Below are positions 41,293 to 61,945 of a stretch of 64,000 bases of DNA, in pieces. The notes beneath the pieces are model-generated. The model saw nothing but the letters and a program-made list of their open reading frames with translations. It did no database searches and was not told the origin of the DNA. Every line of letters starts with the position of its first letter. The first letter of the stretch is position 1. The position numbers were made by a program, and so were the translations under genes. Source of the stretch: an uncultured delta proteobacterium (lineage in GTDB: Bacteria; Desulfobacterota; WTBG01; CAIYCZ01); NCBI GenBank assembly GCA_963803975.1, contig CAWDOY010000001.1, positions 1 through 64,000 on the forward strand, given 5' to 3'.

Positions 41293-42093
41293 ATGATTGG
41301 AAAACAGATTCGGTTAGAGCGTATCATTAATAGAAATTCGAGAAAGTCAGTGATTATCCCCATGGATCACGGGGTGACCATAGGCCCGGTGCCCGGTCTC
41401 ATTGACATGAAGAAGACCGTTGACGCCATTGCCGAAGGCGGCGCCAACGCCATCGTGATGCACAAGGGCCTGGTTGCCAACGGCCACCGCGGAAGCGGTA
41501 AAGACGTGGGTCTCATCATCCATCTGTCCGCCAGCACCAAGCTGGCACCGGACCCTAACGCGAAAATGCTCGTGTGCACGGTGGAGGAAGCAGTGCGGTT
41601 CGGCGCTGACGCGGTCTCCATTCATATCAACATCGGCGCTGATGATGAGAAAGACATGCTGCGGGATTTTGGCTATGTGTCGCGTGAAGCGCAATCCTGG
41701 GGCATGCCGCTGCTGGCCATGATGTATACCCGGGGCAAGAAGATAAAAAATGAATATGATGTGAGCGTGGTTAAGCACGCGGCGCGGGTCGGAGCCGAGC
41801 TGGGGGCGGATATTGTCAAAGTTCCCTACACCGGGTCTCCGGCAACGTTCCGCGAGGTTGTCGAGGGCAGTTTTGTGCCGGTGGTTATAGCAGGCGGAGA
41901 AAAGATGGAAACCGATGAAGATATTCTGAACATGGTCAAAGGCTCTCTTGATGCCGGGGGAGCGGGAGTTTCCATCGGCCGCAACGCCTTTCAGCACCAC
42001 GCGCCGGAGCGGATCGTAAAGGCAATAAGCCTCCTGGTGCATGAAGACAGCTCAATAAAAGAGGCTCTTAAACTGTTGAAGGAAAAAAGATGA
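41293..42093 (+). CDS. 2-amino-3,7-dideoxy-D-threo-hept-6-ulosonate synthase (AroA'-type, DhnA-class aldolase)
   Basis: [30 protein letters not shown]; adjacent to DHQ synthase II. Confidence 0.88.
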
Positions 42094-43082
42094 AACAAAT
42101 CTGGGTCAAAGTTGATCCCTGGGATAAGGACATTGCCATTGCCGCCCTTGAGAGCGGTGCCGAGGCCCTGGTGCTGCCGCCGGGCCACAGCGCTGAGGCA
42201 AAAAAGTTCGGCGTCATCCGCACCATAGCAGCAGATGGCGATCTGAAGCCGGGGACGGATGTTTTCATGGTTGATATAGCCTCAAAAGAAGATGAGCAGC
42301 GGATAGCGCGGCTTGCCCCGGACAAGCCGGTGATGGTAACAACGCGGGACTGGACCATCATTCCCCTGGAGAATCTTATCGCCCAGCGGCAGAATATTTT
42401 TCTTGAGGTGGCAACGCTTGCCGATGCCCGGACCGCACTGGCAATTCTGGAACGGGGAGTTGACGGCATTGTTATCAACAACCGGGATGAGGCTGAGCTG
42501 CGAAAGATTATCGCGGCGCTCAAGGAAGAAGGGGAACAGCTGTGTCTGGCGGAAGCAGCAATCACCCGGGTGCTGCCGCTTACCATGGGGGACCGGGTAT
42601 GCATTGATACCTGCTCGTCAATGGGCCTTGGAGAGGGAATGCTCATTGGCAACAGCAGCAGCGGCATGTTTCTGGTGCACGCGGAGTCAATTGAAAACCC
42701 GTACGTGGCGCCGCGGCCGTTCCGGGTGAATGCCGGGCCCGTGCACGCCTATGTCAGGGTTCCAGGCGGCACGACGCGCTATCTCTCAGAACTGAAAGCC
42801 GGGGACCCGGTGCTCATTGTAACCAGCGAGGGAAAGACCGAACAGGCAGTGGTGGGGCGGGTTAAAATAGAGAAGCGGCCCCTGGTGTTCATCGAAGCAG
42901 CTGTAAAGGACAGGATTTTTTCCGCAATCCTGCAGAATGCCGAGACCGTGCGTCTTACCGCGCCCGGCGGCACCCCGGTATCTGTTGTTGAACTCAGCCG
43001 GGGAACTAAAGTCCTGGTGCTGGTGGAAGCGGCCGGCCGGCATTTCGGCATGAAGGTGGAAGAATCAATAGAAGAAAAGTAG
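42090..43082 (+). CDS. 3-dehydroquinate synthase II (AroB'-type)
   Basis: [51 protein letters not shown]. Confidence 0.92.
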
Positions 43083-43182: not shown

Positions 43183-46125
43183 ATGGCGTTGCAGAATGTA
43201 TCCCCCCAGTGGAGATCTTTTTTGGTGCGGTTTATTTTACCAACCGCCATCACCATCGCCCTGTTTTTAACTTCCATTTTTTCTATCGTTATTCCCACCA
43301 TTGAGAAAAACAGCCTGGACCGCAAGCGGGAGATGATCCGCGAACTGACCAACTCAGCCTGGAACATTCTGGCGAAACTGGAGAACGATGTGCGGCTGGG
43401 GGTGCTGACCAGGGAGCAGGCCCAGAAGCAGGCCATTGACCAGATCCGCAACCTGCACTACGGCCAGGAGATGAAGGACTACTTCTGGATCAACGACATG
43501 CACCCGCGCATGGTTATACACCCGTACCGCACCGACCTGAACGGCAAGGATTTAAGCGACTACCAGGACCCGAACGGGAAACGGGTGTTCGTGGAATTTG
43601 TCAACGTGGTCAAAAAAGAGGGCTCCGGTTTTGTCAATTATATGTGGCAGTGGAAGGATGATAAAGCCCGCATTGTACCTAAAATCTCGTATGTCAAAGG
43701 ATTTGCGCCGTGGGGATGGATCATCGGCACCGGGATTTACATTGAAGACGTGAAGGCGGAAATTGCCCTGCTGATTCGCAATGTCATTGAGATCTCGCTG
43801 TTCATCCTGGTGGTCATGGCAGTGCTGCTGGCAACCATTATTATTCAGAGCTTCAGAACCGAGCAGCAGCGGCGCATTGCGGAGCAGGCGCTGCAGGAGT
43901 CTGAAGTGAAATACCGCACCCTGGTTGAGTCTGCTGCTGAAGGCATGCTTATGGCGCTCGAGGGCAGGTATATGTATGCCAACCAGACCATAGCAGCGCT
44001 GCTTGAATACAGCCAGGACGAGTTTTCGCAGATGCCCGTCCAGGAAATTTTCGTGCAGACACCAGCTCATCCCAGCTACCGGCACCTGCAGAATTTCATG
44101 GCGGGAAAGCCGCTTCCCGAAAGGTTTGAAGCGCAGTTGAAAACCAAATCAGGGGGCAGCAGGGATGTCATATTGTCCACATCCCCGATTGTTATCGGGG
44201 GCCGGGCAGGCTTTATCGTGGTTGCAACAGATATAACCCAGCGCAAGCAGGCCGAGGACGCGTTAGGTGTGAGCGAAGAAAAGTTTCGTACTCTGGCAAA
44301 CAACCTCAATGTCGGGCTGTTCAGGAGGACCATTGGCGACAGCCCGAAATTTATCGAGGTAAACCCGGCGCTGGTCTCGCTGCTTGGTTATGACAGCAAG
44401 GAAGAACTTCTTTCTATCTCAGCGGTCGATTTGTATGTTAATCCGGACGACCGGAAGAAATTTGAGCCAAAAGTCGAGCCGCAGGTTTCAAAAAGAGAAA
44501 TTAAAAGAGAAATTGTCAAGCTCAAGAAAAAAGACGGGACATTTTTTTTCTCCTCCATCTGGGCTGTTGTCATTAAAGATGAAGACGGGAATCCGCACTA
44601 TGTTGATGGGATTCTCGAAGACATAACAGACCTTAAATCCAGAGAAGAAGAGCAGGAACGCCTCCTTTCAGAAATGCAGGCGGCTTTGCTTTTTTTTAAC
44701 CAGCCGATAGAAAGCCTGCAGGTACAGGACGCCGTAGTATGTTCGCCCGCCACCAGCATTGCAGCGGCGGTATCCTTACTGGAGCAGCGGGAAACCGACG
44801 TCCTGTTGATACGAGATAACCAGGAAAACAATGTCGGGGTCATTACCGATCTGGACTTGAGAAAAAATGTTATGGCTAAAGGATGTCATCTGGATAAGCC
44901 CGTTTCAAGCATCATGAGTTCCCCCGTCATATCCATGTCCTGCAACTCGTGTATTTTTGAGGCCGGTCTTCTGATGGAGCAAAAACACATTTCCCATCTA
45001 TTTGTGACCAATAATCATGACCGTATTATTGGCGTGATTCGCAGTGACCACATCAGCGCAATTCAAAAATATTCTCCCACGATTCTTCTGCGGGATATCA
45101 ATAACGCCAAAGCTCCCCATGACATCATTGAGCACAATGCAGAACTCCCGTATCTTATCAATACCGTAATCAATAGCGGCGCAAAACCTCAATATATTAA
45201 TCATCTGACAACCATTATTGTAGATGCCGTGCTGCAAAAATTCATAGATTTTGCCATTCAGGAGCTTGGCATTCCTCCCGCCAGATTTACTTTTATAATT
45301 TTCGGCAGCGAGGGGCGTCAAGAGCAGACGCTGAGAACCGATCAGGATAATGCCATCATCTATGAAGATGTGCCGCCGGAGGCTGAGGAATCGGTGCAGG
45401 GGTATTTCCTGAATCTGGGGCAGCGGGTCTGCGGCTGGCTGCATCAGGCAGGGTATTCCTACTGCGAGGGAAACAATATGGCGCAAAATCCGCAATGGTG
45501 CCAGCCACTCTCTACCTGGAAGCGATATTTCAGTGAATGGATTGCCAACGGCACGGCAGAAGATCTGCTGAAAGCGAAAATCTTTTTTGATTTCAGAGGC
45601 GCTTATGGTGAACAGACTTTTGTGCAGCTGTTGCGAAAACATTTACATACGGTCATAGGGCAGAACCCGCGTTTTTTCCAATTGCTGGCAAGAAACGTGC
45701 TTCAGCTGAGCCCTCCCATAGGTTTCTTCGGGAATTTTGTTGTAGAATCGGTGGGAGAAAACAAGAAAGCTTTTGACATAAAAAGCTCCATGATGCCGAT
45801 TGTCGATTATGCAAGAATTTATGCGCTGCAGCATAACATAGCGGCGACCAATACCTTTGAACGATTAAAGCAGCTGTATGAACGCAACCTTCTTTCGCAG
45901 CAAAATTATCAGGAGATGATACAGGCATACAGCTATCTGATGCAGACCCGTCTTTGCACGCAGGCAGAGGCCATCATGCAGGGGAATAAACATCCCGATA
46001 ACTATGTCAGTCCCAGAAAACTGACCTACATTGAGCGCAAATTGCTAAAAGAGATATTTGCTCAAACAAAAAATTTTCAGGCGCGATTGAGCTATGACTT
46101 TACCGGACAGATGGGCGGTGTTTAA
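43183..46125 (+). CDS. Membrane sensor: TM-sCache_2-TM-PAS-PAS-CBS pair-DUF294 nucleotidyltransferase-DUF294_C
   Basis: YFWIND..MVIHP..Y.W Cache motifs; two PAS/PAC ending DITQRK and DITDLK; CBS GVITDLDL..IMSSPV; GSEGRQEQTLRTDQDN; C.GN.MAQNPQW, IFFDFR, DIK..PIVD.AR, NT.ERL. Confidence 0.88.
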   Translation: MALQNVSPQWRSFLVRFILPTAITIALFLTSIFSIVIPTIEKNSLDRKREMIRELTNSAWNILAKLENDVRLGVLTREQAQKQAIDQIRNLHYGQEMKDYFWINDMHPRMVIHPYRTDLNGKDLSDYQDPNGKRVFVEFVNVVKKEGSGFVNYMWQWKDDKARIVPKISYVKGFAPWGWIIGTGIYIEDVKAEIALLIRNVIEISLFILVVMAVLLATIIIQSFRTEQQRRIAEQALQESEVKYRTLVESAAEGMLMALEGRYMYANQTIAALLEYSQDEFSQMPVQEIFVQTPAHPSYRHLQNFMAGKPLPERFEAQLKTKSGGSRDVILSTSPIVIGGRAGFIVVATDITQRKQAEDALGVSEEKFRTLANNLNVGLFRRTIGDSPKFIEVNPALVSLLGYDSKEELLSISAVDLYVNPDDRKKFEPKVEPQVSKREIKREIVKLKKKDGTFFFSSIWAVVIKDEDGNPHYVDGILEDITDLKSREEEQERLLSEMQAALLFFNQPIESLQVQDAVVCSPATSIAAAVSLLEQRETDVLLIRDNQENNVGVITDLDLRKNVMAKGCHLDKPVSSIMSSPVISMSCNSCIFEAGLLMEQKHISHLFVTNNHDRIIGVIRSDHISAIQKYSPTILLRDINNAKAPHDIIEHNAELPYLINTVINSGAKPQYINHLTTIIVDAVLQKFIDFAIQELGIPPARFTFIIFGSEGRQEQTLRTDQDNAIIYEDVPPEAEESVQGYFLNLGQRVCGWLHQAGYSYCEGNNMAQNPQWCQPLSTWKRYFSEWIANGTAEDLLKAKIFFDFRGAYGEQTFVQLLRKHLHTVIGQNPRFFQLLARNVLQLSPPIGFFGNFVVESVGENKKAFDIKSSMMPIVDYARIYALQHNIAATNTFERLKQLYERNLLSQQNYQEMIQAYSYLMQTRLCTQAEAIMQGNKHPDNYVSPRKLTYIERKLLKEIFAQTKNFQARLSYDFTGQMGGV
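43315..43610 (+). repeat. 296-bp near-identical repeat, copy 1 (Cache domain core)
   Basis: Matches 47341-47636 with about 10 substitutions counted by eye and no indels. Confidence 0.92.
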
Positions 46126-47208: not shown

Positions 47209-48660
47209 ATGACAGCCCAGCAGCTACCTTTTCACTGGAAATCCTTTGGCATGAGGATTATTCTTCCCACCATCCTCACCATCGCGCTTTTCATCCTGGC
47301 GCTGTTTATGTTTATCATTCCCACCATTCAAAAAAACAGTCTGGACCGCAAGCGGGAGATGATCCGCGAGCTGACCAACTCAGCCTGGAACATTCTGGCG
47401 AAACTGGATAACGATGTGCGGCTGGGGGTGCTGACCAGGGAGCAGGCCCAGAAGCAGGCCATTGACCAGATCCGCAGCCTGCACTACGGCCAGGAGATGA
47501 AGGACTACTTCTGGATCAACGACATGCAACCGCGCATGGTCATACACCCGTACCGCACGGACCTGAACGGCAGGGATTTAAGCGACTACCAGGACCCGAA
47601 CGGGAAGAGGGTGTTTGTGGAATTTGTCAACGTGGTGAAGAAGGACGGCTTCGGCTATGTTGACTATTTGTGGCAGGACCGCGACAATAAAAATCTCGTT
47701 GTGCCTAAAATCTCCTATGTGAAGGGGTTTGCACCCTGGGGCTGGATTATCGGCACCGGGATTTACATTGACGACGTTCAGGCGGAAATCGCCCTGCTGA
47801 TCCGCTCCGTCATGAGGATTTCAGGGGTTATTCTGCTGCTGATGCTGCTGCTGCTCGCAAGCATTATCCGGCAGAGCTACCGCACCCAGAAACAGCTGTG
47901 GGTTGAAGAAGAGGAGCTTAAAAAAACCCAGGCCAGCCTGGCATTTGCAGAAAAAATGGCGTCCCTGGGAAAGCTCTCGGCAATGGTCGCCCATGAAATC
48001 AATAATCCTCTTTCAGGAATTCTATCCTATGCCAAACTCTCATCCCGATATCTGAGCAAAGCTACCGGTGACACTGAAACCGCGGCAGAGATCAATAATA
48101 ACCTCTCTTTTATCGCTGCCGAGGCCAAACGTTGCGGAGACATCGTCAAAAACCTGCTGCAGTTTGCAAAACGGGCTTCAGGGGAAGTGAAAGAGACGCA
48201 TCTCAATGAAATAGTTGATGTAAGCATGCAAGTGATTGCCCACAGCGTCAAGATGAAAAACCTGGAGCTCAAAAAACAGCTGGGCCAGGGAGACGACCTG
48301 ATTCAATGCGATGCAGGCGCCATTCAGCAGATCCTTATCGCCATGATTGTTAATTCCATAGAATCGTCATCACCCGGGGGGACCATTATTGCCCGCACTG
48401 ACTATAATGATGCGGCGTGCGTTCGGATCGCGTTGAAGGATTTTGGGGCGGGAATTGCCCCTGACGTGCTGCCGCACATATTTGAGCCTTTTTTCTCCAC
48501 AAAAGAATCAAATAAGAGCATGGGGCTGGGGCTGTCGGTGGTATACGGCATTGTCCAGCGGCACGGCGGTACCATCAGCGTGGATTCGCGCGCGGGCGCG
48601 GGTACCGAGTTTGTCATCACCCTCCCCCGCACACAACAGACCGCTGCCAACCAAACGTAA
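47209..48660 (+). CDS. sCache_2 sensor histidine kinase (NtrB-like)
   Basis: TM-Cache-TM; EKMASLG..VAHEINNPL H-box; N, DFGAGI, FEPFFSTK, GLGL boxes. Confidence 0.93.
   Translation: MTAQQLPFHWKSFGMRIILPTILTIALFILALFMFIIPTIQKNSLDRKREMIRELTNSAWNILAKLDNDVRLGVLTREQAQKQAIDQIRSLHYGQEMKDYFWINDMQPRMVIHPYRTDLNGRDLSDYQDPNGKRVFVEFVNVVKKDGFGYVDYLWQDRDNKNLVVPKISYVKGFAPWGWIIGTGIYIDDVQAEIALLIRSVMRISGVILLLMLLLLASIIRQSYRTQKQLWVEEEELKKTQASLAFAEKMASLGKLSAMVAHEINNPLSGILSYAKLSSRYLSKATGDTETAAEINNNLSFIAAEAKRCGDIVKNLLQFAKRASGEVKETHLNEIVDVSMQVIAHSVKMKNLELKKQLGQGDDLIQCDAGAIQQILIAMIVNSIESSSPGGTIIARTDYNDAACVRIALKDFGAGIAPDVLPHIFEPFFSTKESNKSMGLGLSVVYGIVQRHGGTISVDSRAGAGTEFVITLPRTQQTAANQT
47341..47636 (+). repeat. 296-bp near-identical repeat, copy 2 (Cache domain core)
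   Basis: Matches 43315-43610. Confidence 0.92.
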
Positions 48661-48677: not shown

Positions 48678-50021
48678 ATGAAACCAGCCGACATAGGAAT
48701 CCTTATTGTTGATGATGAAGCTTCGGTACGGGATGCTCTCTATAAATGGTTTAAATTTGACGGATACCGCGTAGATACGGCTGAAGAAGCCACCAGCGCG
48801 CTTAAAAAGCTTCAGGAGGATTCCTGGGAGATTGTTCTGCTGGATATTAAAATGCCGGGCATGGACGGGCTGGAACTGCAGCGGCAAATAAAAAAGATTG
48901 ATAAGGACATTATAACTATTATCATTACCGCCTTTGCCTCAGTTGATACCAGCATCCAGGCGCTCAAAGAGGGAGCGTTTGATTACATTGTCAAACCCAT
49001 CGACCCTGATGATATGAGCCATCTCATCAGGAATGCAGTTGAACAGAGACGGCTGCTTACTGAAAACATGCAGCTGCGGCAGCAGATTGAGGAAATCTCC
49101 TACCCGGATGAGATTGTGGGAGAAAGCCCGGCACTTAAAAAGGTCATGGATAAGGTTGCCACGGTCGCGCAGACCGATTCAACCGTCATGATCCGCGGAG
49201 AAAGCGGCACCGGGAAGGAACTGATCGCACGGGCTATCCACAGCAACAGCAACCGCAGGTATTTTCCTATCATTACCATCAATTGCGGGTCCTATGCGGA
49301 AGGGCTGCTGGAAAGCGAACTTTTCGGCCATGAAAAGGGGGCCTTCACCGGGGCGCTGTACCGGAGACGGGGCAAGCTGGAAATGGCCGACAAAGGAACC
49401 ATATTTTTGGATGAGATCGGCAATATCGGGGAGAAGATGCAAATGGATCTGCTGCGGGTAATTGAAACGCGGCAGTTCACCCGGCTGGGAGGCGATAAGC
49501 TTATCAGCGTTGATTTCAGGATTATCAGCGCAACCAACAAGGACCTGGAAAAGGCGGTCAGGGAAGGAAGCTTTCGTGAAGACCTGTATTACCGGCTCAA
49601 TGTTTTTTCCATAACCCTGCCGCAGCTGCGTGAGCGAAAATCAGATATTGCGCTGATAGCACGGTTTTTCGTGAATAAATATTCCCAGTCGATGAATAAA
49701 ACTGTTACCGATCTTTCTCCCGAAACGCTGGATATGCTCATGAAATACCACTGGCCGGGAAACATCCGGGAGCTGCGGAACGTTATTGAGCGGGCGATGG
49801 TGGGTGCGCGGGGTCCCCGCATTGAAGTATCCGATCTCGCTTTTCCCTTTCATCCTTCCTCAAAACTGTCAAGCGAAGAGACCCTGGAGGCAGTGGAAAA
49901 AAATCATATCAAAGATATTCTGGATCGCACCGGGGGCAATGTCGCTCAGGCTGCAGGCATCCTCAAGATCAGCCGGCTTACCCTGTATAATAAAATAGGA
50001 AAATACCGGTTAAAAAAATGA
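48678..50021 (+). CDS. Sigma-54-dependent response regulator (NtrC/AtoC family)
   Basis: Receiver IVDDE..LLDIKMP; GESGTGKE, ESELFGHEKGAFTGA, FLDEIG, FREDLYYRL, WPGNIREL; Fis HTH. Confidence 0.95.
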   Translation: MKPADIGILIVDDEASVRDALYKWFKFDGYRVDTAEEATSALKKLQEDSWEIVLLDIKMPGMDGLELQRQIKKIDKDIITIIITAFASVDTSIQALKEGAFDYIVKPIDPDDMSHLIRNAVEQRRLLTENMQLRQQIEEISYPDEIVGESPALKKVMDKVATVAQTDSTVMIRGESGTGKELIARAIHSNSNRRYFPIITINCGSYAEGLLESELFGHEKGAFTGALYRRRGKLEMADKGTIFLDEIGNIGEKMQMDLLRVIETRQFTRLGGDKLISVDFRIISATNKDLEKAVREGSFREDLYYRLNVFSITLPQLRERKSDIALIARFFVNKYSQSMNKTVTDLSPETLDMLMKYHWPGNIRELRNVIERAMVGARGPRIEVSDLAFPFHPSSKLSSEETLEAVEKNHIKDILDRTGGNVAQAAGILKISRLTLYNKIGKYRLKK

Positions 50022-50042
50022 TAGTGCTGCCGCGCCGATAGT

Positions 50043-50570
50043 ATGTTCTATATCTACATCGTGCCCATCAGCGGACAGGGACTCGGCTGTATTGAAGAAT
50101 TGCAGCGCTGCGTTGAGCATGCCTTTGGCGTCAAGACGAAATGCCGCGCCTTTAACGTCAACCTGCCGGACACCTTCGACCCCCACAGAAAACAGTACAA
50201 CTCCTCTCTTATCCTGCGGCAGTTAATTGCCGCGCCCCCAGCGGATGCATACAAAATTCTGGGGATTACCGGCATGGATCTTTTTATTCCCATACTCACC
50301 TATGTTTTCGGCGAGGCACAGCTTGACGGCATCGGGGCGGTGGTTTCGCTGCACCGGCTCAACAATCAGTTTTACGGTTTGCCGGAAGACCCCGGCCTGA
50401 TGCATGACCGGCTCCTGAAAGAGGCAGTGCATGAGCTGGGGCACACCTTCGGGCTGCTCCACTGCTTTCATCCCGGCTGCGTACTTAACGCATCCACCTA
50501 TGTGGAGGACATTGATCAGAAGTCGCGCGAACTTTGTTTCACCTGCCGGGAGACCATCAGATTGAAGTAA
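50043..50570 (+). CDS. Archaemetzincin-family Zn-dependent peptidase
   Basis: RKQY, DLF.P.LTYVFGEA, KEAVHELGHTFGLLHC...C, D.K...C..C. Confidence 0.9.
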   Translation: MFYIYIVPISGQGLGCIEELQRCVEHAFGVKTKCRAFNVNLPDTFDPHRKQYNSSLILRQLIAAPPADAYKILGITGMDLFIPILTYVFGEAQLDGIGAVVSLHRLNNQFYGLPEDPGLMHDRLLKEAVHELGHTFGLLHCFHPGCVLNASTYVEDIDQKSRELCFTCRETIRLK

Positions 50571-50649
50571 GGTTCAGGGGGCGGAACATCAGTGGAGGGG
50601 TGGCAGAGGTATGGCGTGCCAGATAGGATTTTGTATGACAGCCGCCAGC

Positions 50650-51453
50650 TTATGGCACGGTCTTTGTTGTTAAGCAGTTTTCCGGAGAAGGGCAATTCTC
50701 GCTCCGGGATAAAGAGTCTATTATCTGATAGTACTGCTCCGCGCTGAGAAGCTCGGCAAGAGAATTTATTTTCACCCCCCCATCCTGCATGGTGGGGCCG
50801 AGGTCGTTCGATGAGTGCTGCAGCATTGCCGTGCCCGCTGCAGTCAGTTCCTGGTGCTTCTGCTGGTACCAGGCGAGAGCCTTTTTGCCGAACAGCAGGT
50901 TCCGCAGGTCATGTTCAAGGGTTGCGGGCTTTACGGTGACCATCCACCCCTCATCCCAGGGGTCGCTCATTATCAGCTCAGGTTCCTTTTGCAGCCGCTT
51001 GTTTATCAGCTGGATGGTTCCGGTAAGCGGTGCAATAACCGGTATGATATGGTGTTCCTGAATTATGTGCGCGCAGCATTCCCCCTGGCGTATCATCTCG
51101 CCTTCCTGCGGCAGAACTACTGCTTTCAACCGAACCATCAGCCGGGTCAGCACATCATCAATGCCAATCCGGACATTTTCCGGGTCCTCAACTTTTACCC
51201 AGCAGTGACCGGGATGATAAAAGAGCGACCAGCGCAGATGGAGAGAGGCATCCGGCACTGAAGAGAGCTCTTCCCCGGTCCCGGCTTCCTGCCGGGAATC
51301 CTCTGCTGCGGCCTCATTGCGCATCACCTGATCAAACATGCAGGTTTCGCACCGGTAGTCACGGGCGCAGAGCTTATAGGAGATCAGGCCGGTGGTCATC
51401 CAGACGCATCTTTTTTCTTCTTCCGGAATCAGATGACACTCTTTTTTGCTCAT
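50650..51453 (-). CDS. GcvH-like protein lacking the lipoyl lysine, with N-terminal Cys4 motif
   Basis: FYHPGHCWV, VRIGID, APLTG..IN..L..PELI.SDPW.EGW H-protein fold; ESVK position reads IQEH; CVWM..G..SYKLC..DY.C..C. Confidence 0.82.
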   Translation of the reverse strand: MSKKECHLIPEEEKRCVWMTTGLISYKLCARDYRCETCMFDQVMRNEAAAEDSRQEAGTGEELSSVPDASLHLRWSLFYHPGHCWVKVEDPENVRIGIDDVLTRLMVRLKAVVLPQEGEMIRQGECCAHIIQEHHIIPVIAPLTGTIQLINKRLQKEPELIMSDPWDEGWMVTVKPATLEHDLRNLLFGKKALAWYQQKHQELTAAGTAMLQHSSNDLGPTMQDGGVKINSLAELLSAEQYYQIIDSLSRSENCPSPENCLTTKTVP

Positions 51454-51590
51454 AGACTTGCAACCGTATTCAGCCGGGTTGTGATAAACAGACATGTATG
51501 TATAGTAGCGTTTTTGTTAACAGCCCTGAAAAGTTTTATAATATATCCCGTGTGTTCGATCTCTCCTGTTTTTTCTGGGCGTTCAGGAGA

Positions 51591-51624
51591 TGCGGCCCCG
51601 CACCGTAGATGGGGCGGGGCCGCA
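51591..51624 (-). terminator. GC-rich stem-loop downstream of the OFA transporter
   Basis: 11-bp stem TGCGGCCCCGC/GCGGGGCCGCA; no clear U-tract. Confidence 0.5.
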
Positions 51625-51631
51625 GGGGTGA

Positions 51632-52963
51632 TTACTTATCCTTTTTTTCTATTTTTTCACCACCGTCAGCCATGGTAAAACCCAACTGGGGTTCAAATAT
51701 GACGCCGGCGGGAACAGTGGCAGGCTTGGATGCTTTCATGGAGAAGGTCAGCCCGGCTCCCACAATGAGCATAATCGCAGCTATCAGAAAGGATGAGCTG
51801 AAACTTCCGGTGTTTGTTTGCAGCATCTGGGATACCCTGCTCATGACAAACCCGCCAATCCCCCAGGCCGTGAACATGATTCCATAGTTAATGCCGAACG
51901 ACTTGAGCCCCCACAGATCCTTGGTGAGAGACGGAAACAGGGACAGGTTTGATCCATAGTTAAAGCCGATAAACGTTGCCAGCAACAGCATCAGGACTGC
52001 ACTCGGGTGCTCTGCGCCGACCAGCGGGATGGCGGCAAGCATAAGCACTGCCTGGAACAGAAGCATCATCAGCATCGTATAATTTCTGCCGATTTTGTCG
52101 GATAATATGCCGGCTATAATGCGGCCGCCGGCATTGCCCACCGCCATGATGGCCACTGCCAGGAATGCTGCATTGGGCATGCTCTTCTTTGCCATGCCGG
52201 CGATGCTGCTGATAACCATCAGTCCCACGCCAGCACCGATGAAATAGATAAACCAGAGCACATAAAAGTTGGCTGACTTCATCATTTGTGCGGGAGTGGC
52301 ATCAACGCTCAACGCGGATTTTTTAACGGCTCCCTTTTTGTTCTGTGTCGCAGCTTCAGGCACATAGCCCTGCGGAGGATTAACCAGCAGCAGGGAAAGC
52401 CCGCACACCACGACAAGAAAAGCAACGCCAAACAGCATCATTGAATTATTGATGCCCATGGTTTTTAAGAGATACTCGGACAGGGGCGCGATATAAACTG
52501 ATGCGAGCCCGAAACCAGCCACCACCAGCCCTGCAATCAAGCCGGTTTTTGCCGGAGGGAACCATTTCAGGGCCGGCGGCGTTGCCGCGGAATAGCCGAA
52601 ACCGATCCCCGCTCCGGCCAGCACGCCGAACCCCAGAAGCCATGCTGCGTAACTATTGGACTGAGAACACAGCAGCAACCCGATCGCCACGAGAATGCCG
52701 CCGATAAAAGCAGTTATGCGCGGCCCAACCTTATCCTGACACTTGCCGGCAATGATCATTGAGAATGCAAAACAGAGACAGCAAACAGAGTACGGGTCAT
52801 TCATCTGCGCTGCACTCCAGCTGAAGATGCCGTCTTTTGCCTCAATTGATTTTGCTATGGAGCCCTTGAAAATACTCCAGGTATACAGAATGCCAAGGGC
52901 AAGGTTAATGCCGGTTCCTGCGAATGTTACCATCCATCCTTTGTTTTTTACTGCCTGTGTCAT
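51632..52963 (-). CDS. OFA-family MFS transporter (oxalate/formate antiporter-like)
   Basis: LGILYTWS.F, QDKVGPR, G.G.G.GY, KWFP..TGL..G, N..GR...G.LSDKIGR, NYG..FTAWG; about 12 TMs. Confidence 0.9.
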   Translation of the reverse strand: MTQAVKNKGWMVTFAGTGINLALGILYTWSIFKGSIAKSIEAKDGIFSWSAAQMNDPYSVCCLCFAFSMIIAGKCQDKVGPRITAFIGGILVAIGLLLCSQSNSYAAWLLGFGVLAGAGIGFGYSAATPPALKWFPPAKTGLIAGLVVAGFGLASVYIAPLSEYLLKTMGINNSMMLFGVAFLVVVCGLSLLLVNPPQGYVPEAATQNKKGAVKKSALSVDATPAQMMKSANFYVLWFIYFIGAGVGLMVISSIAGMAKKSMPNAAFLAVAIMAVGNAGGRIIAGILSDKIGRNYTMLMMLLFQAVLMLAAIPLVGAEHPSAVLMLLLATFIGFNYGSNLSLFPSLTKDLWGLKSFGINYGIMFTAWGIGGFVMSRVSQMLQTNTGSFSSSFLIAAIMLIVGAGLTFSMKASKPATVPAGVIFEPQLGFTMADGGEKIEKKDK

Positions 52964-53052
52964 ACTTCCTCCTTTTGTTTATGAACTTCTGCTGCCGTCA
53001 ATAGGGTCTATAAATAAATACACGAACCCTTATATTTTTCAGACTTTCTTTT

Positions 53053-53423: not shown

Positions 53424-53692
53424 ATGGCACACGGACCAACGACACAATGGGGAGAGGACAAAGCGTCAGAGTACAAGTCAAAGCTCGGGGTGTATCTGTT
53501 TATTTTTTATACTTTAGTGTATGCCGGCTTTATAATCATAAACGTAGTGAGTCCCAAACTGATGGGAGTAAAAGTGATTTAGGCCTTAATCTGGCAGGCG
53601 TGTACGGGTTCGGTCTGATTCTACTGGCTATCGTTATGGGACTTATTTACAACTACCTCTGTTCACAAAAGGAATATGCAGTTAATAAATAG
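53424..53692 (+). CDS. DUF485 (YjcH-like) small membrane protein; frameshift near 53580
   Basis: AGGAGG RBS; MAHGP..KSKLGVYLFIFY..YAGFI..PKLM then LGLNLA..GFGLI..GLIYN; precedes actP-like gene. Confidence 0.75.
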
Positions 53693-53707
53693 CAAGGAGA
53701 CTGAGCA

Positions 53708-55609
53708 ATGATTTATGCAGCTTCGCCGTTCGCAATCGGCTTGTTTATCGCGTTTGTGTTATCTGTTCTCGGGATTTCGTCGTATTTTGCCAAGAAGACG
53801 CAGTCATCAAAAGGGTATTATGCGGCCGGTGGAACCATTCACTGGGGTGTCAACGGCATAGCGTTTGCCGGTGATTATCTTTCTGCCGCCTCATTTCTGG
53901 GAATCTGCGGGATGATCGCATTTGACGGTTATGACGGATTTCTGTATTCCATAGGGTATCTTGCTGGCTGGGTTGTGGCCTTGTTTGTGGTGGCAGAACC
54001 CCTGAAGCGTTTCGGTAAATATACGTTTACCGACGCGCTTGATTATAAATTCGGTTCCAAGGGAATACAGCTCACCGCAGCCATCAGCACCCTTGTTGTT
54101 TCCCTGTGCTATCTGGTGCCGCAGATGGTCGGCGCCGGCGACCTGGTTACTCCGCTGCTGGGATTTCCCCATTATGTCGGGGTTATCATGGTTGGCGCTA
54201 TTGTTATATTCATCGTGGCGACAGCCGGCATGACCTCAACAACGTATGTTCAATTTATAAAAGGCGGCCTCCTGATCGTTTTTTCCACAATTCTTACCAT
54301 CTGCGTTTTCAATAACGGTATTTCAAAGAAACCTTCAGAAAATTACCACGAGTTTAAAGCACTGAAAGCTGTTGCCGCAGGAGGAGCTATTACTGCAGTT
54401 GAGGACACGTCCTATAAAATCGCCGGTGAATTTAAAGATAAAAAGGGACAGTTTGTAAAGCTTGAAAAAGACGGCATTAATTCATGGTGGAAGGCCGGTG
54501 AAAAAAATGGGGCGCCGGTGCTTGAAGAAGCACTCTCGCTCACGACTCGCGCGGACGGCACCAAGCTCTACAATGGCGAGCCCAAAGAAGCGCGGAAGTT
54601 TTTCCAGGTCGGCAGCGCAAGCAAGATTATTGTGGATGGCCAGGAAGTTGACAAGACCGGCGGCCTGGGTCCGTTTCAGTTCCTTGAGACTTTGGAATCA
54701 AGCGAGATTGTCCGTTTCGGCAAGGCAGCTATCAGCGACGGCAAAGACAAGGTTTCAGTCTTTTATCAGAACCCGACTTCCGGAAAAGATATCATGCGCC
54801 CCGGGCTGAAATTTAAAGTGGATAAGGGCTCTGATTTCATGTCAAAACTTAATTTCGTGTCCCTTATGATCGCCCTGTTTTTCGGCACCTCCGCACTTCC
54901 GCACATCCTCATCCGCTATTACACGGTCCCCAGCCCGAAAGACGCGCGCAAATCAACCATTGTTGCCATCGGCTCCATCGGTTTTTTCTACATCCTCACC
55001 CTGTTCATGGGCCTGGGGGCAATGGTCTCCGGCGTCATTGACCTTGAGAGCAGCAACATGTCGGCGCCGCTGCTCGCAAAATATTTCGGCACCGCCCTTT
55101 TTGCCATAATATCCGCAATCGCTTTCGCGACGGTTCTTGGTACGGTGAGCGGCCTGATTGTCGCCGCCTCAGGAGCAGTGGCACATGACCTGATGTCAAA
55201 TTTTTTAGGCATTGAAATGACCGATCAGGGCCAGGTTAAGGCAGGGAAAATTTCGGCAGTTGTTGTCGGCTGTATCGCAATACTGCTGGGCATACTCTGC
55301 AAGGGAATGAACGTATCGTTTCTCGTAGGCCTTGCGTTTGCCGTGGCCGCATCCGCCAATCTGCCGGCAATCATCATGCTGCTGTTCTGGAAAAAAACGA
55401 CCTCTAAAGGGATTGCCGCTTCCATTGTAGTAGGCATGGTATCAGCGCTGGGGATGATTCTGCTCTCTCCCAGCACCTATGCGGACATTTATGGCCTGCC
55501 TGCTACACAGGCCCCCATTCCCCTTGATAACCCCGGCATCATATCGATACCGCTCAGTTTTATAACGCTGGTGGTGATTTCACTGGTGACACAGAAGCAG
55601 GCGAAATAA
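53708..55609 (+). CDS. actP: Cation/acetate symporter ActP-like (SSS family) with large hydrophilic insertion
   Basis: NGIAFAGDYLSAASFLG, AEPL..GKYT..D, QMVGAG, GT.ALPHIL.RYYTVP..ARKS, AFATVL.TV.GL, AASANLP. Confidence 0.88.
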   Translation: MIYAASPFAIGLFIAFVLSVLGISSYFAKKTQSSKGYYAAGGTIHWGVNGIAFAGDYLSAASFLGICGMIAFDGYDGFLYSIGYLAGWVVALFVVAEPLKRFGKYTFTDALDYKFGSKGIQLTAAISTLVVSLCYLVPQMVGAGDLVTPLLGFPHYVGVIMVGAIVIFIVATAGMTSTTYVQFIKGGLLIVFSTILTICVFNNGISKKPSENYHEFKALKAVAAGGAITAVEDTSYKIAGEFKDKKGQFVKLEKDGINSWWKAGEKNGAPVLEEALSLTTRADGTKLYNGEPKEARKFFQVGSASKIIVDGQEVDKTGGLGPFQFLETLESSEIVRFGKAAISDGKDKVSVFYQNPTSGKDIMRPGLKFKVDKGSDFMSKLNFVSLMIALFFGTSALPHILIRYYTVPSPKDARKSTIVAIGSIGFFYILTLFMGLGAMVSGVIDLESSNMSAPLLAKYFGTALFAIISAIAFATVLGTVSGLIVAASGAVAHDLMSNFLGIEMTDQGQVKAGKISAVVVGCIAILLGILCKGMNVSFLVGLAFAVAASANLPAIIMLLFWKKTTSKGIAASIVVGMVSALGMILLSPSTYADIYGLPATQAPIPLDNPGIISIPLSFITLVVISLVTQKQAK

Positions 55610-57236: not shown

Positions 57237-58742
57237 TCAGGAGGAGCCGAACCCAAAGCTCATGAGACGCTCGCGTATTTTAGTTTTAAATGTTGGAAGA
57301 GCAATTTTAATCGTGAGCAGCAGGTTGTAATTAAAAGCTTTCAGCATAAGGTAGAAATAAGATACGGGTTCAATAAAAATCACGATGAAAAAATATAAAA
57401 TAGCAAGCACTGATTTTGCAATCAGTTTTTCTCTGTTCCGTACAAAATAGTCTATCATGGGTGATGTAATCAGCGGAGAAATCCTCACCAGTTTATTCAA
57501 ATACGTGGGCTGGTAGTTAAAATAATTTCTGATCCCCAGATCAAGGGAACCCATTTTTTCGTGAAGCAGGTCAAAAATCTCCGTACCTTTATAGAAGGTG
57601 AGGGTAAAGAGCTGAAGCTGAAAAGGCTTGCGCACGTTCTGCAGGACGCGCACGGTGTTCAACGCATCCTCCTCTGTTTCAAACGGATTATCGAGGATGA
57701 CATCGTAGTATCCGCTAATGCCGTATTTCCGCACGATGTCGGTTGCCTCTAAAAATTTTTCATTGGATACATGACGGTGATATACTTCCCGGTTGATCCG
57801 TTCACTTCCTGACTGCAGCCCCATCGTTACCCAGGCAAGACCTGCCGGCTTCAGGGTCTTTACCTTCTCTTCGGTCAGGTGGAGCGGTGTTGAGCGCACA
57901 ATGAACGGCCGGGCTATCCACTTTTTATAATCGCCGACGAATTCCTCATGCCACTCTCTGCTGTGGGCCAGGAAACAGTCATCATGAATATTCACCAGGA
58001 TAATGCCAGGGAACTGTTTTATGACCGAGCGCAGCTCTTCAATCACATTGCCCGGGGATCTCTTTCTGATTTTTTTTGTGCCGTAAAGCCGGGATAAAAA
58101 TGAATTGCAGCAGTATGCGCAGGAAAACGGGCACCCCCGGGAGGTTATCATATTATATGCCTTGCCGTCATAGCGGGTATACTGCCTGAAAAGCTTCATG
58201 TCCATGGCGAGGATTTTGCCTCCATGGTAGACATAGGAATGAGCCGGCAAGTGTTCAGGGAACGGGATCCGGTCCAGATCATCTATAAGCGGGCGGAGCG
58301 GATTTTTTGTTATCCCTGAGTCATCTTTAAAAGCTATGTTGTTGATGTGTGCGATGCCGGCATTTTTTTCCAGTGCGCGCGCTATCTCCAGGACGGTCTC
58401 TTCCCCTTCACCAATACAGACCATATCAGCATACTCAAGACACTCTTCAGGGCTTATGGTGGGATGTATGCCGCCAACCAGAAACGGTATATCAGGATAC
58501 CGCGCTTTGACGCTTTTGCCGATATAGGCGGCAAACGGGGCTTCATAACTCATAAACCCGCAGCCAATTAACTGCGGCTGATACGATGCAATAAAATCGA
58601 GCAGGGGGTCTTGAACATTTTGGGTATGCGAGGGAATGAAAAGAATGGCTGACTGATGGCCCTCCTGCAGCAGGCTGGCATGCAGGTATTTAACCCCGAA
58701 ATTTTCAGTCGTTGGCAACAGGGATAGGAGAAGAATTTTCAT
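57237..58742 (-). CDS. B12-binding radical SAM protein
   Basis: GGIHPT, IGEGE, SRGCPFSCAYC, HDD.F, GLQSGS. Confidence 0.9.
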   Translation of the reverse strand: MKILLLSLLPTTENFGVKYLHASLLQEGHQSAILFIPSHTQNVQDPLLDFIASYQPQLIGCGFMSYEAPFAAYIGKSVKARYPDIPFLVGGIHPTISPEECLEYADMVCIGEGEETVLEIARALEKNAGIAHINNIAFKDDSGITKNPLRPLIDDLDRIPFPEHLPAHSYVYHGGKILAMDMKLFRQYTRYDGKAYNMITSRGCPFSCAYCCNSFLSRLYGTKKIRKRSPGNVIEELRSVIKQFPGIILVNIHDDCFLAHSREWHEEFVGDYKKWIARPFIVRSTPLHLTEEKVKTLKPAGLAWVTMGLQSGSERINREVYHRHVSNEKFLEATDIVRKYGISGYYDVILDNPFETEEDALNTVRVLQNVRKPFQLQLFTLTFYKGTEIFDLLHEKMGSLDLGIRNYFNYQPTYLNKLVRISPLITSPMIDYFVRNREKLIAKSVLAILYFFIVIFIEPVSYFYLMLKAFNYNLLLTIKIALPTFKTKIRERLMSFGFGSS

Positions 58743-58785
58743 GTATCGGCTTTATGTAGTAGAACGGATTGCAAGGGAAAAAGCG

Positions 58786-60327
58786 TCAAACGGTTTTGAC
58801 GTGCCCGGTTTTTTTATTTAATCCAGGCCGCGGAAAAAGCGTCCGTATCCTGTCTGCCAGTTTTTTTCGTGCAAACAGCCGGTACCGGGCCATAAAGTTA
58901 GCCGCATCAACATCATATTCCTTGTGCCGGTCAAGCAGACGCGAAATGCTGTGGGCAAGCATGCCCAGGTCCGGAAAAACCTTGTAGATCCTGGCCCGGA
59001 TGAGAGCTCTGTTCAGCCATTTGGGAAGAGCAAGGAGCACCACCAGATAGGTTTGAATCCGGGCGAAGTTTTTTATCGTAATGGTGCCGCCCTGGATAAA
59101 GGAGCGGGCGGTGAGGCCCTCATTTATCTCTTCCACGTCCCGGGGCGTGAGCATCTTATGCTCCATGGCTATATCTATAATCTTGGTGCGCGGGAAATAG
59201 CGCAGGAAATAGAGGCTGAGACGGTTGGGCCGGGTCTCATTATAAAACGAGAGCATGTTGACCAGGTCATCCTCAGTCTGCGTGGGAAGGCCCAGCATAT
59301 TTTCACAGATTGCATGAATGCCGGCACTGCGCAGCAGCAGGATCGCGCTTCTCACCTTCTCGTTGCTTTCCCTGCGGTTGAGGATGTTTTTTTTCAGCTC
59401 TTCGTTGAGGGACTGAACACCCATAATCGCCTGCCAGCAGTTTGCCTCCTTGAGCCGTGCCACAGACTCTTCATCGATGAAATTAACATGAATGCAGGCG
59501 GTGAATGGCAGATTTATATCTTTCTTATAGCCATCCAGAAATTCAAAAAGCCATTTCTTGTCGCTGATTAATATTTCATCCCAGAAATGCACCGCGGAAA
59601 AATTATAGGTTGCTTTTGCCCAGCGCAGTTCTGCAAGGACATTTTCCGGACTTCTCCGGCGCATGAATCTGCCCTTGCCGGGATAGATTATATCCTTGTA
59701 GAGAGAGTTGTTGCAGAACGTGCATTTATTTACGCATCCCCGGCTGGTAATAGTTATGTAGCCCTCTGCAAAGAAGGGCAGCTTGTCATAAAAGATGCCT
59801 TTATCCGGGAACGGCAGCGCGTCAAGGTCTTCGATGAGCGGCCGCACCTCATTCTTGAACACCTCTGTTCCGTTTTTCGCCCAGATGTTGGGAATGGTGC
59901 GGCAGATGGCTGGATTTCCCAGGTTGTCTGCAAGGTCAACCAGCGCCCCCTCACCTTCTCCCACTACTATATAATCTACTGACGGCTGCCTGATAACATA
60001 GTCCGGCACCGAGGACGGGTGCACACCGCCAAACACAATGGGAACCTGCAGGGCCTTTTTTATCCGGTCAGCAAGGCGTACTGCCCAGGGATAATTATCA
60101 GACACCACTGAAAAGGCAACCAGGTCAGGCTTACAGGATTTCAATTCGGTAATGATATCTTCAGTGTAGTCAAAAAATTTATGCAGTCGTTTATAATAGA
60201 GAAAGGTATCGTTGAAGAGCTGCGGGTCAAAGCACAGCGAGCACTTGTGCCCGGCCTGTTTGAGGGCAGTAGCAAGGTACTCTATGGCAAGTGTTTCACA
60301 TGCAGATGATACAAAGACAATATGCAT
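58786..60327 (-). CDS. B12-binding radical SAM protein
   Basis: GGVHPS, VGEGE, SRGCVNKCTFC, WDE, GVQS. Confidence 0.9.
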   Translation of the reverse strand: MHIVFVSSACETLAIEYLATALKQAGHKCSLCFDPQLFNDTFLYYKRLHKFFDYTEDIITELKSCKPDLVAFSVVSDNYPWAVRLADRIKKALQVPIVFGGVHPSSVPDYVIRQPSVDYIVVGEGEGALVDLADNLGNPAICRTIPNIWAKNGTEVFKNEVRPLIEDLDALPFPDKGIFYDKLPFFAEGYITITSRGCVNKCTFCNNSLYKDIIYPGKGRFMRRRSPENVLAELRWAKATYNFSAVHFWDEILISDKKWLFEFLDGYKKDINLPFTACIHVNFIDEESVARLKEANCWQAIMGVQSLNEELKKNILNRRESNEKVRSAILLLRSAGIHAICENMLGLPTQTEDDLVNMLSFYNETRPNRLSLYFLRYFPRTKIIDIAMEHKMLTPRDVEEINEGLTARSFIQGGTITIKNFARIQTYLVVLLALPKWLNRALIRARIYKVFPDLGMLAHSISRLLDRHKEYDVDAANFMARYRLFARKKLADRIRTLFPRPGLNKKTGHVKTV

Positions 60328-60436
60328 TACTATTAATAACCTTTTTCGGATTGAAACGGCGGCTGGTAATGCGCGGGTTTCGATAACCGTAAAATGTTCA
60401 GGGCTAATCTACCCCGGTTCAGCATTCTGTAAGGGC

Positions 60437-61945
60437 TTATTTTAGCAATTTGCTTTTCACCAATCCCCTGAGCGCAGCTTCATAACGGGTGCCTTCGATA
60501 AACTTGTTTAATCTCCTCCGCACGATATCTCCAAAGCCATAGCCAACCACGTTCAGCCCGGCCCGGATGGTATTGCCAATGCTTCTGGGACTGGTGATAA
60601 ATTTAAAGACATAGCGGGCAATCACCTGTGGCCGCAGATAAAATTTCCGGTACATTTTCCGGTGGTTATTTATGAGATCCTGCTTGGTGAGCCCGGCGGG
60701 GATAAAAGCCGGTTCCCAGAAGCCGAGCTTTTTCCAGTCGCGCTCGAATTGGCCATACTGTTCAGCTGTTTTAAAAAGTTCCGCTCCCGGCATGGGGGTA
60801 CAAAAGGTTACATGAAAGTCTCTGAGGCCGCTTTCAGTAATAAACCGGGTTGTCTTTGCCATCGTCTCCAAAGTTTCGCCGGGGCAGCCGATCATGAAAT
60901 AGCCCCGTGAGTGAATTCCTGCTTCATTGGTTTTCCGGATCATTTCCGCAACTTTTTCTATGGTGGTCCTCTTTTTGAGATTATCCAGTATCTTCTGGTC
61001 GGCACTTTCAATGCCATAGGCAATCTGCCAGCACCCGGCGCGTTTTATGAACCTGAAGAAATCGTCGGGCATGATATCGGTTCTTGCCAGGCAGGACCAG
61101 CTGAGTTTGTAGTTCCTTCTGAGGATTTCTTCACAGATTTTGGTCACCCGCTTTCTATCAAGCAGGAAGTTGTCGTCGTAAAACATAATATCCCGGATGC
61201 CATAGACTTTCACCAGATGGTCAATCATCTCAATAGTGTTTTCAGCGCTGTGGCTCCGGTATTTTTCACCCATAAAGGGGCGGGCGCAGAAGGTACAGGT
61301 CCCGTTGCAGCCCCGTGAGGTAAGCAGTGTTGAGGACGGCAGCTGATAATAACTATGGGGTGATGGCTTGTAATATTTTGGCAGCGAGGGTATCAGGTCC
61401 CAGGCCGGGAACGGCAATGCATCCAGGTTTTCTATGTTGGCCCGGGGCGCGGAAAGAAGGACCTCAGCTCCTTTACGGTAGGCAATGCCCGGAATATCGC
61501 TGATAGCCCCGCCATTTTTATAGCAGGTTATTATCTCGGGGACCGTATATTCGCCTTCATTCAAAACCCCGATGTCAAATTCCTTAAACTCCTGCAGTGT
61601 TTCTGCCGGGAGAGAGGAAACATGGGGGCCTCCGATAAGAATGGGAACGGTAATGCCCTGCTTTTTTATTGCCGCTGCCAGTTCCCCTGCCCGCGTTATT
61701 GAGACGGTGGAAGCAGTTATGCCTATTAGTTCAGCATTGGCTTTGGCAATTTCTGTTAGGGTCCGGGGCAGGTCCATATCAAAGGCAGGCGCATCAAGGA
61801 TCTGCACGCTATAGCTTACCTGTCTCACTGTTGCCGCAATATAACAGAGACCCAGAGGCGGTGCCTGGCTGCCGACAGATGCAAAGCTCCCATAACGCTC
61901 TTCAAGGGTTATGGGAGGATTAATGAGCAATAAATCTTTTTTCAT
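60437..61945 (-). CDS. B12-binding radical SAM protein (BchE/HpnP-like superfamily)
   Basis: PPLGL.YIAA, GGPHVS, EGE, SRGCNGTCTFC, YDDNF, GIES, FMIG.PGET, TPMPG. Confidence 0.92.
   Translation of the reverse strand: MKKDLLLINPPITLEERYGSFASVGSQAPPLGLCYIAATVRQVSYSVQILDAPAFDMDLPRTLTEIAKANAELIGITASTVSITRAGELAAAIKKQGITVPILIGGPHVSSLPAETLQEFKEFDIGVLNEGEYTVPEIITCYKNGGAISDIPGIAYRKGAEVLLSAPRANIENLDALPFPAWDLIPSLPKYYKPSPHSYYQLPSSTLLTSRGCNGTCTFCARPFMGEKYRSHSAENTIEMIDHLVKVYGIRDIMFYDDNFLLDRKRVTKICEEILRRNYKLSWSCLARTDIMPDDFFRFIKRAGCWQIAYGIESADQKILDNLKKRTTIEKVAEMIRKTNEAGIHSRGYFMIGCPGETLETMAKTTRFITESGLRDFHVTFCTPMPGAELFKTAEQYGQFERDWKKLGFWEPAFIPAGLTKQDLINNHRKMYRKFYLRPQVIARYVFKFITSPRSIGNTIRAGLNVVGYGFGDIVRRRLNKFIEGTRYEAALRGLVKSKLLK

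Follow-up and report, generated by a model that had tools for sequence, protein, structure and literature searches.

A conserved cytoplasmic tail tag on three kinds of bacterial membrane protein matches a loop of a lipoyl-less GcvH-fold family

The subject of this analysis is a peptide shared by two adjacent genes in a 64,000-nucleotide (nt) stretch, hereafter the window, of the 4.25-Mb genome of an uncultured delta proteobacterium (assembly GCA_963803975.1, contig CAWDOY010000001.1). One gene encodes a monocarboxylate transporter of the major facilitator superfamily (MFS), the other a GcvH-like protein. The match between the two proteins is real and extends beyond this window. The peptide LGxTMADGG is a conserved cytoplasmic tail tag on SfMCT-type MFS transporters, NrfD subunits and small single-helix proteins and, judged by sequence comparison, it copies GxTMxDGG, the most conserved loop of a lipoyl-less GcvH-fold family. 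Genes for the loop-bearing family are inherited together with a cassette encoding a histidine kinase, a sigma-54-dependent regulator and an archaemetzincin protease. Some protein of this cassette very probably reads the tag. We tentatively name the archaemetzincin as its putative reader, the likeliest among several candidates. The parts have known folds, but the tag and the cassette are undescribed and directly testable, and the reader of the tag is uncertain. The main features, in window coordinates, are as follows.

51632..52963, minus strand: SfMCT-type (SLC16-like) monocarboxylate MFS transporter of 443 amino acids (aa), first gene of the operon, with a tagged cytoplasmic C-terminal tail
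51659..51685, minus strand: tag core LGFTMADGG, transporter residues 427-435; the consensus in transporter tails runs from about P425 to K437
50650..51495, minus strand: lipoyl-less GcvH-fold protein of 281 aa, with an N-terminal four-cysteine (Cys4) motif, an H-protein barrel and a C-terminal extension with the DGG loop
51340..51408, minus strand: Cys4 motif C30-C43-C49-C52; C43, C49 and C52 invariant and C30 at 90% or more in 40 homologues
50776..50802, minus strand: internal copy LGPTMQDGG, residues 232-240, in a low-confidence, predicted exposed loop
53053..53068, minus strand: sigma-54-type -24/-12 promoter-like element with one mismatch, 105 nt upstream of the transporter start

Conservation and carriers of the tag

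The GcvH-like peptide at 50767-50805 (minus strand), DLGPTMQDGGVKI, and the transporter tail peptide at 51650-51688 (minus strand), QLGFTMADGGEKI, are identical at 9 of 13 residues; five of these nine use different codons, and the DNA is identical at 23/39 positions. An earlier note on this DNA had reported just such a match, and both peptides confirm it. Taken alone the pair is moderately rare, since the best ungapped 13-mer reached nine identities in 1/1000 shuffles of the transporter, a level at which a few such matches are possible among the thousands of neighbour pairs of a genome. Chance is excluded by the context, that is, by the rarity of the motif genome-wide and its conservation in both homologue families. 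The pattern G.T[ML].DGG occurs twice among the 54,180 six-frame open reading frames (ORFs) of the host genome, both times in these adjacent genes (0.30 expected). The motif is present in 120/121 GcvH-like homologues, the remaining one being truncated, and in 65/121 transporter homologues, with two further one-residue variants. The profiles of the two families can be aligned over 16 motif columns only.

Conservation in 67 tagged transporter tails is 100% at L, G, M, A, G, G, E and K and 99% at T and D, while the linker preceding the tag is variable. Every degenerate tag codon shows synonymous variation among 13 distinct tails. This pattern bears out the earlier proposal that the match is selected at the protein level. 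When the tail is left out of the transporter tree, three changes of the tag are required, at least two of them forced; the tagged-transporter counts therefore represent few events, not many.

To find other carriers, GTDB genomes were scanned with the pattern LGxTMA[DN]GG. The scan gave at least 122 stretches, 80 of which had flanks; these 80 tag-scan loci include 61 tail tags. Their distinct matches comprise 55 tails of small single-helix proteins, three MFS tails, three NrfD tails, two GcvH-like proteins, three other C-termini, eight internal matches and seven outside ORFs. The records are assigned to Acidobacteria, deltaproteobacteria, Ignavibacteriae, Bacteroidota, Kryptoniota and Myxococcales, although a few assignments look inconsistent: locus L133 is labelled Arcobacter yet has an Acidobacteria-type layout, and the gene content of L069 is at odds with its Enterobacteriaceae label. 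A profile search for the tag gave 158 proteins; LGxTMADGG is present in all 120 of those that were listed, whose median length is 88 aa and none of which has a Pfam domain. The pattern scan and the profile search were both seeded with the motif, so that the strictness of the tag is partly built in, while the transporter set was not seeded in this way. Some records were reached by two routes and some genomes are related, so counts overstate independence. The tag is thus portable over three membrane-protein families and several phyla, which goes beyond the earlier note.

Of 95 single-helix carriers, 85 have more Lys and Arg after the helix, and the termini of MFS proteins lie inside the cell according to PMC6573034, which agrees with the cytoplasmic tail assumed earlier for the transporter. 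On these two grounds the tag faces the cytoplasm. Variants with Asn for Asp or Ala for Thr occur. A terminal Gly-Gly tag of the ubiquitin-like or Pup type was rejected, as GG is not C-terminal in the tail tags: 5 to 34 residues follow it and a prior cut would be needed. Two tag proteins searched against Pfam and NCBIfam matched no family and a third gave one sub-threshold Pfam hit; one tag protein searched in the ESM Atlas had no match at 0.9 or above. Scanning the other proteins of all retrieved loci with a divergent-tag profile returned only chance-like matches and broken GcvH-like pieces. When profiles were compared, the tag matched the GcvH-like loop with 95% probability (E 3e-8).

The tagged transporter

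The window transporter was earlier labelled an oxalate/formate antiporter (OFA). This identity is ruled out by the cut-offs of both OFA models (TIGR00890, 233 bits against 374.85; TIGR04259, 163 against 335), while the SfMCT L-lactate transporter model NF049980 was passed at 419 bits (cut-off 320). The protein aligns to SfMCT of Syntrophobacter fumaroxidans (PDB 6g9x) at residues 23-412, and the tail of about 30 residues that bears the tag lies beyond the aligned part. The carboxylate-site residues Y119, N276, R280 and Y331 of SfMCT are retained as Y124, N277, R281 and Y336. In contrast, the proton-site His250, which SfMCT needs for transport, is replaced by Ser253, and F335 by Leu340, so that substrate and coupling are unproven here. 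The stretch 53447-55609, divergent from the transporter, holds a small membrane ORF and the gene of an ActP/MctC-like sodium:solute symporter. The same symporter type is found near tagged transporters in L192, L193, L245 and L252, which points to a carboxylate-uptake island.

The GcvH-like protein and its loop

The GcvH-like protein matches PF01597 at residues 93-206. Its start may be Met15 (51453), as homologues of 267 aa exist. The Cys4 motif is, from its sequence, a probable metal or Fe-S site. A first full-length fold from 40 close rows was poor (pLDDT, for predicted local distance difference test, of 53), and a core model from 145 rows was used instead (pLDDT 89.4). The core model is predicted to have the H-protein fold; in fold comparison it gave VIA Z 22.8, root-mean-square deviation 1.5 and 131 aligned positions to 1dxm, and Z 15.3 to 5a35. 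Fold searches with the model matched H-proteins only and barely tested the C-terminal extension. In this family the extension is modelled as a long helix, then the motif loop, then two short C-terminal helices. The loop block, at pLDDT 58-63, is the least confident internal segment of the core model. Across the 145 family members D is conserved at 96%, G at 100% and G at 97%, with Thr at 61%; loop variants end in SGG, TGG or AGG, with the Asp replaced by Ser, Thr or Ala, or in DGE.

The protein is not a true GcvH lipoyl carrier. Position His148 corresponds to the lipoyl-Lys, and this column is not conserved (G 31, D 21, R 11 and K 10% in 145 rows). All four GcvH-type cut-offs were missed, namely NF002270 (72.3 bits, cut-off 117), TIGR00527 (63.2, cut-off 115.85), the GcvH-L model TIGR03077 (35.9, cut-off 144) and the GcvH_rel_desulf model NF045810 (38.3, cut-off 150). 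The barrel fold is common to GcvH (PF01597, TIGR00527) and GcvH-L (TIGR03077, PDB 5a35), but the GcvH-like protein lacks the lipoyl-Lys, adds a Cys-rich N-terminus and a C-terminal helix-loop-helix with DGG, and is encoded in signalling cassettes rather than glycine cleavage operons. The motif also provides a marker that separates the large group mis-annotated as 'glycine cleavage H protein' from true GcvH. A search of the ESM Atlas with the protein gave only hypothetical or GcvH-named clusters.

Family members are either soluble with a Cys-rich N-terminus or anchored by one helix. Fusions join the loop-bearing domain to acetyl-CoA synthetase, HdrA-MvhD and, apparently, in two database proteins, a histidine kinase (HisKA); the fusion records are L183:6173-8806, L184:7047-9938, L190:6604-9522, P0244, P0048, P0294 and P0347. 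The domain has the look of a mobile regulatory one. In L062 a seeming NrfD-GcvH fusion proved to be overlapping different frames and was dropped. Three receiver-domain-GcvH fusions without the DGG extension precede an HdrA-like gene at L199:6233-10717 and are a separate kind of non-canonical H-protein.

Co-inheritance with the cassette

The GcvH-like gene is convergent with a protease gene; this gene and those before it are as follows.

50043..50570, plus strand: archaemetzincin (peptidase M54) with an intact HExxHxxGxxH motif and four cysteines
48678..50021, plus strand: sigma-54-dependent response regulator (REC-AAA-HTH)
47209..48660, plus strand: sensor histidine kinase with an sCache_2 input domain
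43183..46125, plus strand: sCache_2-PAS-CBS-DUF294 protein, a neighbour in the window and not a constant part of the cassette

The archaemetzincin passed model NF033823 (156 bits, cut-off 145), and its catalytic motif is invariant in 49/49 cassette-linked homologues. A non-proteolytic protein of the CarG type was rejected, since the catalytic Glu131 is kept and NF033824 gave 89 bits (cut-off 250). Family membership and both zinc motifs are common to AmzA (M54), CarG and the window protein, but CarG of Myxococcus xanthus has lost the catalytic Glu. We found no printed account of a fixed position of AmzA- or CarG-type proteins beside a kinase and a sigma-54 activator, and in the 12 loci inspected here the protease gene stands between the kinase and regulator genes in 12/12. 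CarG also illustrates that the fold can be used as a protein-binding subunit in gene regulation (PMC8156234).

The co-occurrence of the tag with lipoyl-less GcvH and with archaemetzincin, suggested earlier, was observed at each level of sampling; its proposed extension to DUF294 was not, as no DUF294 gene was present in the 80 tag-scan loci. The claim had been staked on the motif recurring in orthologous tails and co-occurring with GcvH-like genes, and it does both. A GcvH-like gene is present in the locus of 55/61 tail tags and within 300 bp of 52/61. By comparison, only one of the 15 internal or non-ORF matches has one in its locus, and this is a true tag with a longer tail. Six tail tags lack a scored GcvH-like gene; two of them precede a cut or broken copy, and of the other four, three come from genomes that hold extended GcvH-like genes and a protease elsewhere, while G324 showed neither. 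The orphan tag protein of G324 (L106:5955-6278) reflects an incomplete assembly or a true exception. At L107:4900-5945 the tag gene is followed only by a Cys-rich GcvH-like start running into a kinase fragment, a rearranged remnant. A gene for a Rex-type redox-sensing repressor adjoins an orphan tag gene at L069:6454-7128. In G547:C17 the GcvH-like gene is split, and in G571:C2 the GcvH-like and protease matches contain stops, through decay or assembly error.

For the transporter family, 62/80 loci with a complete end and 700 bases downstream were kept; a visible tag was present in none of the 18 dropped. GcvH-like and archaemetzincin genes are adjacent in 10/10 tagged transporter loci, four of the ten being near-identical, and the GcvH-like gene is found in 0/52 untagged loci. 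Members of this family that have lost the tag have lost the cassette too (G035, L216). Of the 42 genomes of the host class, an identical set of 19 holds the extended GcvH-like protein and archaemetzincin; it includes all 13 tag genomes, with one further weak protease match in G202 set aside. In the phylum (301 genomes), the protease is present in 75/80 genomes with a top GcvH-like match, 61 of them within 8 kb, and in 33/221 of the others. Among 46 tag genomes with no protease in the locus, mostly from other phyla, 42 have one elsewhere; the baseline for archaemetzincin is 65/201 sampled Acidobacteriota. Between the window and Acidobacteria the tag is unchanged, while the adjacent GcvH-like proteins are about 20% identical and the proteases 37-41%.

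Operon layouts and promoter-like element

Three layouts were seen, all near a kinase-regulator-protease operon. In one, a tag protein is followed by a Cys-rich GcvH-like protein and a Qrc-like module; in another, by a 4Fe-4S protein, NrfD with or without the tag, and two GcvH-like genes. The third, that of the window, combines a tagged transporter with one GcvH-like gene and matches the NrfD-type operons with the transporter in place of the upstream block. The NrfD and 4Fe-4S subunits of the tag operons resemble HmcC/HybB of Hmc and HybAB modules or pass the QrcD cut-off (580 > 570). Unlike the Hmc, HybAB and Qrc modules, these operons also encode GcvH-like proteins and a tag protein, and in some the NrfD tail is itself tagged; in the window the transporter replaces the redox module. 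In L084 and L183 an anchored GcvH-like protein occupies the tag-protein slot of L064, L071, L186, L188 and L189. This hints, though it is no proof, that such a protein has survived in the tag as its working end.

Most often the tagged gene comes first behind a sigma-54-type promoter-like element. Scored with the -24/-12 consensus, this element is found 97-120 nt upstream in 8/9 tagged-transporter upstream regions, the window included. Scores of at least 10/12 were reached in 4/9 tagged regions versus 0/21 untagged ones, and in 16/64 single-helix tag genes versus 0.4 expected. This heading of a sigma-54-type operon was likewise absent from the earlier note. In the window alone the sigma-54 pattern is at chance level (21 versus 27), as were sigma-70 and terminator scans. 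RNA-library contigs cover the region (one of 3.6 kb, 49359-52978) but run across genes of either strand and are no evidence of transcription.

Candidate readers of the tag

A single helix with a tag can only display a peptide, so a cytoplasmic protein presumably reads it. Four candidate readers are encoded in the window cassette: the barrel of the GcvH-like protein, the protease, the kinase and the activator. We favour the archaemetzincin on several grounds. In the host class its distribution coincides exactly with that of the loop-bearing family, and its catalytic residues are kept; where the tag stays constant, its own conservation is about double that of the GcvH-like neighbours; and its family combines a narrow cleft with the absence of a known substrate. 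According to PMC3427221, the cleft of a solved archaemetzincin is occluded and its S1' pocket small, the enzyme is inactive on standard substrates, and AmzA had no known natural substrate or partner as of 2012. The most conserved GcvH-like segment, the loop, is also the least ordered in the model, as would be expected if it were read in trans, and domain-free single-helix carriers would suit tethering or competition.

On the proposed mechanism, LGxTMADGG would be a recognition peptide on the cytoplasmic membrane face, a strict copy of the exposed GcvH-like DGG loop. The kinase would sense a small carboxylate and activate the sigma-54 regulator, which would switch on the transporter-GcvH-like operon. 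The archaemetzincin would normally engage the GcvH-like loop, binding or clipping it, and the tag on newly made membrane protein would tether the protease or compete for it, giving the circuit feedback proportional to the membrane protein made. In its most specific form, in which cassette archaemetzincins are sequence-specific GxTMxDGG readers that clip or hold the loop, and transporters, NrfD subunits and anchor peptides have acquired an optimal copy of it that ties the sigma-54 circuit to the supply of membrane protein, this proposal is speculative and we consider it doubtful as a whole.

Several observations weigh against the archaemetzincin. The kinase and regulator travel with the protease, so that co-inheritance cannot separate the three. 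The groove of the archaeal enzyme, acidic and hydrophobic, is said in PMC3427221 to favour basic substrates, and the tag core is acidic. The protease lies in the 12-kb locus of only 16/61 tail tags, against the 52 with a GcvH-like gene within 300 bp. The strict tag is absent from 6 of the 19 class cassette genomes and from many Hdr-linked cassettes. For four of the 46 tag genomes the initial search found no protease, and one of them later showed a partial hit; G324 has neither protease nor extended GcvH-like protein; and 33 phylum genomes have the protease with no top-scoring GcvH-like match. A complex prediction for the GcvH-like core, the archaemetzincin and the 33-residue tail gave 0.28 and 0.00 against a mark of 0.32 and, being without folded controls, speaks neither for nor against binding.

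The proximity of the GcvH-like gene, including the two exceptions that precede a cut or broken copy, instead favours docking of the tag in the groove of the Cys-rich barrel, where it would displace the protein's own loop or that of a partner copy and so bring a metal-bearing, soluble regulator to the redox complex or transporter. Where a docking motif has an internal copy, that copy is often autoinhibitory. The anchored GcvH-like protein in the tag-protein slot of two loci and the fusions of the domain to acetyl-CoA synthetase, HdrA-MvhD and histidine kinase fit this idea as well. Yet GcvH-like proteins that share only about 20% identity are preceded by one and the same tag, the monomer model does not place the loop on the barrel with confidence, and covariation between loop and barrel is weak: in a noisy mean-field analysis (393 sequences, effective 286), some loop-to-first-strand pairs rank 12-127 alongside conserved-column artefacts. 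Barrel docking is rather unlikely, and ranks after the archaemetzincin. Less probable again is docking of tag and loop on the sensor kinase or sigma-54 activator, so that the tagged protein would regulate by feedback, as MgrB or PspBC do. The position of the tagged gene at the head of operons with a sigma-54-type element, the conservation of kinase and activator in the cassette and the two apparent HisKA fusions speak for it, but kinase input domains vary among cassettes, and neither kinase nor activator is singled out over the protease gene between or beside them.

A tag without function, or with a local structural role only, that remained after an older tagged gene had given way to the transporter gene would fit the window layout, an NrfD-type operon with its upstream block replaced, and the gain or loss of the tag in only about three steps of the transporter tree. 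Purifying selection largely refutes this: residues are invariant with free synonymous change and follow a variable linker, the tag is lost together with the cassette in G035 and L216, and a dedicated family of single-helix proteins carries it. We regard a remnant as very improbable. Hardly any weight is left for the earlier idea that the motif Thr or Asp is modified by the neighbouring DUF294 nucleotidyltransferase, or by another side-chain-modifying enzyme. DUF294 lies within about 7 kb in the window and two close relatives, and Thr and Asp are at 99% in transporter tails. Against this, besides the 0/80 tag-scan loci, only 2 of 20 long cassette loci hold DUF294, none was found in 19 kb around the tagged transporter of L194, Asn-for-Asp and Ala-for-Thr tags exist, and GcvH-like loops have Thr at 61% and Ser, Thr or Ala in place of Asp. 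No modifiable side chain is therefore invariant, which argues against nucleotidylation or phosphorylation.

Relation to known systems

MgrB, LiaI and PspB/PspC are small membrane feedback regulators of two-component or sigma-54 systems. The tag proteins share their features of a small single-helix protein with its C-terminus inside, encoded by the first gene under an adjacent regulator. They differ in their putative active element, a short peptide that transporters and NrfD subunits carry as well and that recurs in a soluble partner. By analogy, the tag system may work like these regulators while being a member of none.

Literature searches found no description of the motif or cassette; most subscription papers and all bioRxiv supplements lay outside their coverage. 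Among the archaemetzincin papers listed, none, judged by title or start of abstract, dealt with this cassette, and the Thi4 and MtxX papers, in the passages covered, mention archaemetzincin only as a structural relative or neighbour. Queries combining archaemetzincin with glycine cleavage, GcvH-like with NrfD, or GcvH with Qrc, and five motif strings, found no papers; those on GcvH-like proteins found none on the window family, and those on a DGG motif, on peptidase M54 and on a possible haloarchaeal TDGG habit gave unrelated papers only, among the matches listed. Archaemetzincins occur in archaea, bacteria and humans, and the tag is a specific nine-residue substrate candidate. If the archaemetzincin does read it, the family would have its first natural substrate, and bacteria a portable control tag of a new kind. 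Whichever protein is the reader, a motif has moved among unrelated membrane proteins and is mirrored in a soluble partner. The shared tag points to an undescribed way in which anaerobes from sediments and from peat soils link gene control with transport and respiration.

Other features of the window

The N-terminal sCache_2 regions of the DUF294 protein (43183-46125) and of the kinase (47209-48660) are closely similar, and the likeness suggests a duplicated sensor serving two outputs. Three consecutive ORFs at 57237-61945 carry putative radical-SAM-like CxxxCxxC motifs. At 41293-43082, a class I aldolase and a 3-dehydroquinate synthase II form an archaeal-type entry to shikimate synthesis.

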